Source: Promethearchaeota archaeon
GTDB taxonomy: Archaea; Asgardarchaeota; Lokiarchaeia; Sigyniarchaeales; SOKP01
Direction: 5' to 3'
Assembly (NCBI GenBank): GCA_016839555.1
Contig: JAEOUA010000010.1
Location: 416,001-480,000 of the forward strand
DNA: 64,000 bases
Made by a program: the position numbers and the translations under genes. The notes below the pieces were generated by a model that ran no database searches, was not told the DNA's origin, and saw nothing but the letters and a program-made list of their open reading frames with translations. This document shows positions 5,515 to 8,118 of the stretch, one piece after another (position 1 is the first letter of the stretch; the number at the start of each line of letters is the position of its first letter).

Positions 5515-7455
5515 CTATTTATTTTTTTCAACCAGCCAAATGGGGCTTGCCCATGCCATCTGATCATTGCTCAAAAATATTCTGGGATAATAGAAGCAAA
5601 ATTGTTCATCATTTTTCAGTTTTACGTTATTTATAGTTATTAAATTAAAACTTTCAGTATCTATGTAATTGAGATTATAAATTTTTGAATCAACTACTAT
5701 TTCAGCTATAATATCATTATTTCTAATTATTTCTACCTTTTTAATCAACAATGGACTATAAATTTTAAGAGATAATTTTCTCTTATAATATAAATCGTTA
5801 TTTTCTTTTTGAAGTAAATCGATTATATCGCCCATAAAAAATTTATCAAGCCAAAATTCGAGAATTAATCTAGGACCAGTTGATCCATAACATTTTCGAT
5901 TATTTAGAGCCTTCCATAGTTCTTCTTTATTTAATTTATCTTTATAAGACCAAATTGCCATTATTCCTGAGGGATATAAACCATTATCTATATCAATGGG
6001 CCCTGAAGGATAATATCCAAAGTGATCATCTCCTCCTGCTATGAAACCCAGTTTATATCCATTCTGGAGAGCATCTTTTACATATGAACCTTCCTTTCCT
6101 AATACAGCTCCTCTTTTACGTGCATATTTCCCATATCCAAAAAACTTGTATCTGGGTGGAAGAGGATTTCCTTCTGAATAAGAGTATTCTTGATTTCCCC
6201 AAGTAGAATATATCTCCACTAATTTTTCAAGAGACTGATCGAAATAGTCCCAATTACGATATCCTGGTCTCAAAGCAGTATGATGTCCTATTAAAAGAAT
6301 TTGATCTTTGTAATTTTGAAGATTTTTAATTAGTTTTTGAGTGGAGTTATATTTATTTATATCAGATCGCAAAATTGGGAGCTTGTTATACTTATGATAA
6401 ATACAAATATCACCATAGCCCGAATACCATGTTCCATATTCATACCCAAAAATGGATACAAATGTATCATTTTCATTATATTTCTCGACAAGACTTTTGA
6501 TATCATTAAAATCTTCATTAGTAGTTTCCCAAGCATGGTCATGTTCCGTGGTTGTACCGAAATCCAATCCAGCATTAATTAGATTCTCAAAATATTCATT
6601 GACAGATCTCATCCCATCACTTTTATCAGTATGTGCATGTAGATAACCCCAATAAAGCTTTTGATGTTTATTTTTGTTAGATGAACAGACTATAATATTA
6701 GATTCATAAAGTTCTGAATGATATTCAATTTCTATATAATAAATACCTTCTTTGTCAAATTGAAGATATTTTATCCATTGTATACCTTCGTTACTTTTCA
6801 TAGAATCTAATTCTGTTAAGAAATGTTTTTCATTCGTTTCCGCATTTATTTGAAAAATTCTTATCATAGATGGTTGATGGGGCACCAAATTATAATATTT
6901 ATCTTCAAACCGTAATAAAATTTTAAAAGATTCTCCTAAGCTTACAATAGAAGGACCAATTATTGTAATATGATCAAATTTTTTACTAATTACATTAATA
7001 GTTGGGCTATTTTTAAGAAGTTTTGGTAATTTAGAAGGAGATTTGATCAAAATTTCAATTTTTTTATTTTTTTCAATGATGGACTGGGCTAATGTGTTTT
7101 TAATAGAAAAAGAAATTAATGTATTTCTTGGGATACCTATTGGATCTGTAATAAAATAAGAGATAGAGAGTTCTTTACCCGTTGTTATTATCGGAATCAT
7201 TTCAATTGGAGTCTTTAGGTTTAATTTCGCATACCCATTAGAATTTGGGTCTTCCGTTTGTAGAAAATACCAATCATTTTTATTATTTCTACCTCCTCGA
7301 AATCTAAAAATTAGAATACAATTTTTTGGAATTGAAATACCTAATTTAAAATTTAATTTAATGGAACATAATTCACGAACTTTAACGCTTTTCGGAAATA
7401 TTTGAATATTTTCGATATCATTACTGCTTTGGTTTAAAGATAATTTTTCAACCAT
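5515..7455 (-). CDS. DUF3604 / PHP-like metallohydrolase
   Basis: WGYLHAHTDKSDG, TTTEHD, GYEY, GFIAGGDDH, AWASPIW motifs. Confidence 0.8.
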   Translation of the reverse strand: MVEKLSLNQSSNDIENIQIFPKSVKVRELCSIKLNFKLGISIPKNCILIFRFRGGRNNKNDWYFLQTEDPNSNGYAKLNLKTPIEMIPIITTGKELSISYFITDPIGIPRNTLISFSIKNTLAQSIIEKNKKIEILIKSPSKLPKLLKNSPTINVISKKFDHITIIGPSIVSLGESFKILLRFEDKYYNLVPHQPSMIRIFQINAETNEKHFLTELDSMKSNEGIQWIKYLQFDKEGIYYIEIEYHSELYESNIIVCSSNKNKHQKLYWGYLHAHTDKSDGMRSVNEYFENLINAGLDFGTTTEHDHAWETTNEDFNDIKSLVEKYNENDTFVSIFGYEYGTWYSGYGDICIYHKYNKLPILRSDINKYNSTQKLIKNLQNYKDQILLIGHHTALRPGYRNWDYFDQSLEKLVEIYSTWGNQEYSYSEGNPLPPRYKFFGYGKYARKRGAVLGKEGSYVKDALQNGYKLGFIAGGDDHFGYYPSGPIDIDNGLYPSGIMAIWSYKDKLNKEELWKALNNRKCYGSTGPRLILEFWLDKFFMGDIIDLLQKENNDLYYKRKLSLKIYSPLLIKKVEIIRNNDIIAEIVVDSKIYNLNYIDTESFNLITINNVKLKNDEQFCFYYPRIFLSNDQMAWASPIWLVEKNK

Positions 7456-7550
7456 ACTAATAGGTTAATATTTCATTCGAATAAAAAGCCACTATAATCA
7501 AACTTTTATTAAATTCTAAAAAAAAAGAATAATCCCATAACCTTTGCAAG

Positions 7551-7590
7551 GTAGTCTTCAAATGTCTCATATTTTTACATTTGAGTCATC
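7551..7590 (-). promoter_or_regulatory. Eukaryote-like SECIS element in the 3' UTR of the selenoprotein gene
   Basis: mRNA sense: AUGAC-UCAAAUGU-AAAAAUAUGAG-ACAUUUGA-AGAC; UGAN/NGAN core, perfect 8-bp stem, apical A-run. Confidence 0.8.
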
Positions 7591-8118
7591 CTAAATGGGT
7601 TTAATATTTTTTTCAATCGCATTTATAATTAATTTAATATCAGGTCTATCAGGTTTACTTTCTGGCATATAAATCCACACAATTTCACCAGATTTGTTGA
7701 TTAAAAATTTTGAGGGAATAGCTTGCTTAGATTTTATATTTTTTTCTCCAACTTTATCATAAACATCAACATTAAACATTTGAACAATTTGTGCCCCTTT
7801 GTCCGAAATCTGAGGAAATTGTAAACTATTTTCTTTTTGATACTGTTTTAATTGATTCAAATTATCGGTTGATATTGATATTAGCTTAATTTTATGTTTA
7901 TTAAATTCATCTAAATGATTATTTAAGAGGATTGAATGCTCTTTTCAAGCATGTCACCACACTCCGCGGAAAAAATCTATGAGTAATCCTTTATTATTTT
8001 GAAGAATCTCTGATAAATCTATTTTATTGCCATCACCGTCTGTGATTGAAAATTGAGGTACTTTTTCTCCTACAGAAAGACCTTTATCACCGGCATAATT
8101 GTTTTTATTACTCATCAT
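7591..8118 (-). CDS. Peroxiredoxin-like (AhpC/TSA, thioredoxin-fold) selenoprotein with UxxU motif, ~175 aa
   Basis: ATG at 8118/8115, in frame with track ORF 7591-7860; reads GLSVGEKVPQFSITDGDGNKIDLS...FFRGVW-TGA-HA-TGA-KE; TGAs at 7956-7954 and 7947-7945 sit at the CxxC positions. Confidence 0.88.

Follow-up and report, generated by a model that had tools for sequence, protein, structure and literature searches.

The gene located at positions 7591..8118 of the minus strand of the window (the whole stretch of 64,000 nucleotides that was analysed) is, with high confidence, a Lokiarchaeial selenoprotein gene. It can be assigned to the Asgard PrxL family (Prx-like thiol:disulfide oxidoreductase) and, within this family, to the double-Sec UxxU form, "PrxL.1-type", in which both UGA codons are predicted to be read as selenocysteine (Sec). 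The gene comprises 175 codons and a TAG stop. It is a clean example of how standard gene callers truncate Asgard selenoproteins, and its predicted product belongs to the small number of UxxU (putative diselenide) proteins that occur naturally.

The reading frame and its homologues

Between the ATG at position 8118 and the TAG at 7591-7593, the minus-strand frame contains two internal in-frame stops, and both are TGA. They correspond to codon 55 (7954..7956), the first Sec of the redox box, and codon 58 (7945..7947), the second one. The context FFRGVW-TGA-HA-TGA-KEH becomes FFRGVW-U-HA-U-KEH on read-through. When translation table 11 is applied, the frame is cut into a 54-aa ORF (7954-8118) and an 89-aa ORF started with TTG (7591-7860). 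The read-through protein matches the Pfam AhpC-TSA family (PF00578; residues 16-148, E 2e-25) and the Redoxin family (PF08534; E 8e-20), and both matches run across the two TGAs. The earlier note on this DNA had described the 89-aa ORF as only the C-terminal piece of an AhpC/TSA-like redoxin, whose larger frame opens at ATG 8118, holds exactly two TGA codons and is truncated by standard callers; the translation, the table 11 calls and the Pfam matches bear out this description in full.

A homologue scan that covered one genome per prokaryotic species gave 77 loci, almost all of them in Asgard MAGs. These are Promethearchaeota/Lokiarchaeia and a few genomes labelled as Thor-, Hod-, Hermod- or Odinarchaeota. 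Re-translation of the loci with TGA kept visible yielded 81 genes. All of them have TGA at the first redox position; at the second, 20 genes have TGA and the other 61 a Cys codon. Such a pattern at the second position is, at the sequence level, the classical signature of a Sec/Cys pair. In the family alignment, conservation is even across both TGAs. The full-length homologues deposited in the database show W at the redox sites, and the remainder are C-terminal fragments (89-113 aa). One protein, P0002, was checked on the DNA and translates only if TGA is read as W.

One of the loci (L076, DATKTW010000172.1) is binned as 'Candidatus Nanopelagicaceae bacterium' (Actinomycetota) and holds a typical Lokiarchaeial UxxC PrxL gene with a lokiSECIS. 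On the tree, this gene nests among Promethearchaeota genes; thus, mis-binning of an Asgard contig is the most likely explanation.

In other systems, the insertion of Sec at UGA codons that lie close together is inefficient, and this might favour another reading of the frame, in which Sec is inserted efficiently at the first UGA, while translation often stops at the second or places Cys or Trp there by misreading. The result would be a mixture of products, or mainly a single-Sec or truncated one. The high proportion of Cys codons at the second position points in the same direction, as it implies that Cys is functional there. However, 20 genes keep the second-site TGA. They are spread over several clades, in one of which all 10 genes are UxxU, and this argues that the codon is productively read. 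In addition, one SECIS is known to serve two UGAs located two codons apart in selenoprotein L (SelL) (Mariotti et al. 2016, PMC4989117). Partial insertion at the second codon therefore seems unlikely, and the reading of both UGAs as Sec is preferred.

The SECIS element and the Sec-decoding machinery

A lokiSECIS (type I, eukaryote-like) is located at 7555..7589 of the minus strand and begins 1 nt after the PrxL stop. It consists of AUGA (7586-7589), a 5' stem of nine positions (7577-7585) lying opposite the 3' stem (7557-7565), an 11-nt apical loop AAAAAUAUGAG (7566-7576) and GA (7555-7556), all on the same strand as the gene. The conserved flanks stretch the element to 7549-7595 and thereby into the stop codon. 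Pairing is possible at eight of the nine stem positions; the window has C-A as the first pair, adjacent to the core, and approximately half of the homologues are likewise unpaired at this position. The lokiSECIS has been described as having AUGA ahead of a stem of 9 bp, an apical loop of 11 nt that opens with five adenines and closes with AG, and GA following the stem (Mariotti et al. 2016, PMC4989117); all of these sequence features are present in the window element. A single match to the corresponding pattern ATGA-N9-AAAAA-N4-AG-N9-GA was found in the 64-kb window, where 0.02 matches would be expected by chance.

The same geometry is shared by 58 of the 81 PrxL genes, in which the element is found about 5-20 nt from the stop codon. 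The window SECIS and the 57 others align gaplessly. Across these 58 sequences, no variation is seen in the AUGA, in the A's of the loop, in its final G or in the A of the 3' GA, and the G of the 3' GA is kept in at least 90% of the rows. Compensatory changes can be noted in eight of the nine stem pairs, and the covariation score was matched by none of 500 shuffles and by no slid register. Since the rows were chosen with at least seven pairs, the pairing figure of 90% is biased, whereas the covariation is unbiased. With R1, a covariance model built from PrxL SECIS elements that include the window sequence itself, the window element scores 61.1 bits. A search against Rfam at gathering thresholds found no SECIS in the window, which is to be expected because the lokiSECIS is reported to escape the existing SECIS tools (Mariotti et al. 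2016, PMC4989117). When the 145-nt 3' region is folded globally, its MFE does not surpass that of shuffled sequences (z 0.07). Thus, the signal of the element lies in its motif and covariation and not in its stability.

Oligo-T tracts act as transcription terminators in archaea. A run of nine T at 7518..7526 of the minus strand, 28 nt downstream of the SECIS, is likely such a terminator and would close a monocistronic PrxL mRNA. Just downstream, on the same strand, the window contains a 646-aa ORF (5515-7455) with a weak match to DUF3604 and an HxH...D motif resembling a metal site; no link between this ORF and PrxL was seen in other loci.

The genome to which the window belongs (G000) is a MAG of 3.74 Mb in 12 contigs, with 92% completeness and 6% contamination. 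Its SepSecS gene scores 494 bits, and its SelD gene, which contains one internal TGA, scores 185 bits. The PSTK-like and EFSec-like genes lie below their curated cutoffs (160 bits against 290 and 237 bits against 242, respectively), as does the tRNA-Sec candidate (45.3 bits against 47). The latter is located on the minus strand of contig C5 at approximately 402243-402362 (L001:1500-1619), directly beside SepSecS, with the EFSec-like gene about 5.5 kb away; the arrangement is the same as in Loki. A 30-nt insert (L001:1573-1602) interrupts the D-arm of this tRNA in the 5' strand of the D-stem, which explains the low score and also why ARAGORN found no tRNA-Sec. After removal of the insert, the 90-nt RNA folds (MFE) as an archaeal 9/4 tRNA-Sec cloverleaf. 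Its acceptor stem has 9 bp and its T-stem 4 bp; the D-stem of 7 bp closes a 4-nt loop, the variable arm is long, the anticodon is UCA and the discriminator base is G. The tRNA-Sec of Loki, described in 2016, has a 31-nt intron in the T-loop; in contrast, the insert found here is in the D-stem. By its gene content, the host would be a Sec-decoding organism, with the full machinery encoded.

Besides the window SECIS, the search of the genome with R1 gave four matches. Three of them are located just downstream of tandem HdrA-VhuD (MvhD) pairs, in which HdrA contains 2-3 TGAs and VhuD contains two. Each pair has a single lokiSECIS after VhuD (C10:212449-212495, minus strand; C12:203628-203674 and C12:252530-252576, plus strand), as has been published for Lokiarchaeota. 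The fourth, weaker match (C9:63229-63276, plus strand; 31.7 bits, E 0.011) has no selenoprotein identified upstream of it in a quick ORF screen. A second selenoprotein with AhpC/TSA-Redoxin similarity is encoded on the minus strand of contig C7 (265613-266059; L016:1501-1935). It contains one TGA in the motif H-U-PY-C and is 21% identical to the window PrxL. R1, being a type I SECIS model, gave no match behind this paralogue or behind SelD. The SECIS of the C7 paralogue, if present, would consequently be of another form; for SPS genes, a type II-like SECIS distinct from this one has been reported (Mariotti et al. 2016, PMC4989117). Global reassignment of TGA (code 4 or 25) can be ruled out, since TGA ends 295 of the 2320 long ORFs in the genome (13%), and 8 of 46 in the window.

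The earlier note had further proposed that both TGAs encode Sec, that a SECIS lies downstream, and that two nonsense mutations at these very codons are implausible; as checks, it had named Cys or TGA at both sites in homologues and the Sec machinery in the genome. All of this agrees with the results: the two codons occupy CxxC positions and recur as TGA in the homologues, a single covarying lokiSECIS follows the stop, and tRNA-Sec, PSTK-like, SepSecS, EFSec-like and SelD genes are all found in this genome.

The two short ORFs obtained with table 11 would also be expected from a decayed gene, i.e., an ordinary CxxC redoxin hit by two nonsense mutations, from which only the 54-aa and/or 89-aa fragments are made. 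This explanation is scarcely credible, because TGA recurs at these two codons in many independent Asgard genomes, the frame contains no other stop, conservation is even across the TGAs, and the gene is followed by a conserved and covarying SECIS. Equally hard to accept is an assembly or sequencing artefact, or a strain polymorphism, concealing true TGC/TGT codons: the sequence does come from a MAG with some contamination, but it is very unlikely that the same error (C/T to A) was made twice, at a distance of three codons and exactly at the redox residues. The nearest relatives in other assemblies share the TGA of position 1 and, for the most part, that of position 2, and the SECIS would otherwise be without purpose. 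An assembly error would thus be excluded by conservation only. The double-Sec reading is therefore retained below.

The fold, the active site and the second redox position

The AlphaFold model, for which 42 family members were aligned, shows a thioredoxin-type fold with a mean pLDDT of 88.7. In this model, U55 lies immediately before the helix 56-67, and U58 is in the first turn of the same helix. The nearest solved structures are those of BCP/PrxQ, AhpE and ResA (TM 0.8-0.9, up to 0.90). U55 and U58 align with the first and second Cys of the CxxC of Bacillus ResA; in a thioredoxin box of this type, these are the attacking and the resolving Cys, respectively. In the alignment with the A. pernix BCP, U58 falls on the Cys of S-x-x-C, which is the peroxidatic Cys, and U55 falls on the Ser/Thr position. 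R51 occupies the place of the motif Pro, and the nearly invariant Q132 that of the catalytic Arg; the active-site motif of peroxiredoxins is P-x-x-x-T/S-x-x-C, together with this Arg. The assignment to canonical peroxiredoxins was therefore rejected: Pro is replaced with R51, Thr/Ser with U55 and Arg with Q132, and the Cys position alone is retained, as U58.

Another feature of the protein is the motif AIPSKF, whose Pro (P135) is invariant; it corresponds to the thioredoxin-type cis-Pro motif. Given this motif and the replacement of the Prx hallmark residues, the product is probably a ResA/TlpA-like oxidoreductase or a Sec-based peroxide/disulfide reductase and not a classical peroxiredoxin. 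The resemblance to CxxC oxidoreductases agrees with the published name "Prx-like thiol:disulfide oxidoreductase". There is no Cys residue in the translation outside the redox box. No N-terminal hydrophobic segment is found, and so the single-domain product is probably cytoplasmic.

The following mechanism can be proposed. Sec-tRNA(Sec) with EFSec would decode both UGAs as selenocysteine, and the one SECIS, located about 365 nt downstream of the UGAs, would direct both insertions. In the mature protein, U55 would serve as the attacking selenolate, and U58 would resolve the intermediate with the formation of an intramolecular diselenide, which an upstream reductant would then re-reduce. In the literature, experimental evidence of selenium incorporation or expression was found for no Asgard PrxL, the window gene included.

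The distribution of Sec and Cys at the second position was analysed on a quick maximum-likelihood tree of the 81 genes, in which the two redox residues were masked and support was estimated by SH-aLRT only. The window PrxL belongs to a long-branched sub-clade of five genes, four UxxU and one UxxC (SH-aLRT 100). This sub-clade is separate from the main group of 76 genes, and the identity with main-group genes is 37-46% (alignment A3). On this tree, the UxxU state requires at least five changes, and the ten genes mentioned above form an entirely UxxU clade. Seven loci (L018, L020, L038, L056, L059, L060 and L063) hold two PrxL genes each, one UxxC and one UxxU. In six of these loci, the two genes are 0.7-0.8 kb apart on the same strand, and in several of them each gene has its own SECIS.

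Possibly, the attacking position is fixed as Sec, and the resolving position has been switched between Cys and Sec at least five times, so that the choice between diselenide and selenenylsulfide chemistry has been repeatedly selected as a tunable property. The sub-clade of the window gene would then be an independent origin of UxxU and not orthologous to the other UxxU clades. We put this forward tentatively, at slightly less than an even chance. The number of switches, the placement of the sub-clade and the paired copies are descriptive results, and a careful tree is needed to make them firm.

Comparison with known systems

Two PrxL genes have been described in Lokiarchaeota: PrxL.2, with one Sec at the first position of the redox box, and PrxL.1, in which both Cys are replaced with Sec. 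The latter contains no other Cys, and a diselenide like that of SelL has been proposed for it (Mariotti et al. 2016, PMC4989117). Prx-like selenoproteins have been found in 43% of the Sec-utilising Asgard genomes (Huang et al. 2024, PMC11227280). The 175 residues encoded in the window match by eye the sequence Lokiarchaeia_GCA_016839555_U_2, which has X at both sites, in the supplementary file 79 FASTA of the same work, where the C7 paralogue is listed as Lokiarchaeia_GCA_016839555_U (Huang et al. 2024, PMC11227280). Thus, the family, its double-Sec form, the type of SECIS and the individual sequence are already published, a point missed in the earlier note, and the gene adds nothing as a discovery. 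Its value is that of a validated positive control accompanied by a small comparative data set (81 genes and 58 SECIS elements), which documents Sec/Cys toggling at the second redox position.

When the window gene is compared with the PrxL.1 of Loki and with Asgard PrxL in general, the same family, the UxxU box, the absence of Cys outside it and the type I lokiSECIS near the stop can be noted. Nothing essential differs; the window protein belongs to the five-gene sub-clade.

SelL of aquatic metazoans is similar in that it is a Prx-like protein of the thioredoxin fold with a UxxU motif and a single SECIS; as cited by Mariotti et al. (2016, PMC4989117), it has been reported to form a diselenide. 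However, SelL is eukaryotic, whereas the window protein is archaeal (Lokiarchaeial). With the NCBIfam model SelL_rel_redox (NF040769), the latter scores 54 bits against a cutoff of 120, over residues 19-117 only. SelL can therefore be considered an analogue from the same superfamily, and the window protein is not a member of that family.

BCP/PrxQ and AhpE (2cx3, 3hjp and 1xxu) are the best structural matches, with a TM of up to 0.90 and the same overall fold; however, the window PrxL has a CxxC-type box and a cis-Pro motif instead of the Pro, Thr/Ser and Arg of peroxiredoxins. The G-x-W-C-x-x-C box of ResA/TlpA/StoA aligns with the window protein residue for residue (TM ~0.85). Those proteins are bacterial, membrane-anchored or extracytoplasmic, and use Cys, whereas the PrxL of the window has neither signal nor anchor and is predicted to carry Sec in place of both Cys.
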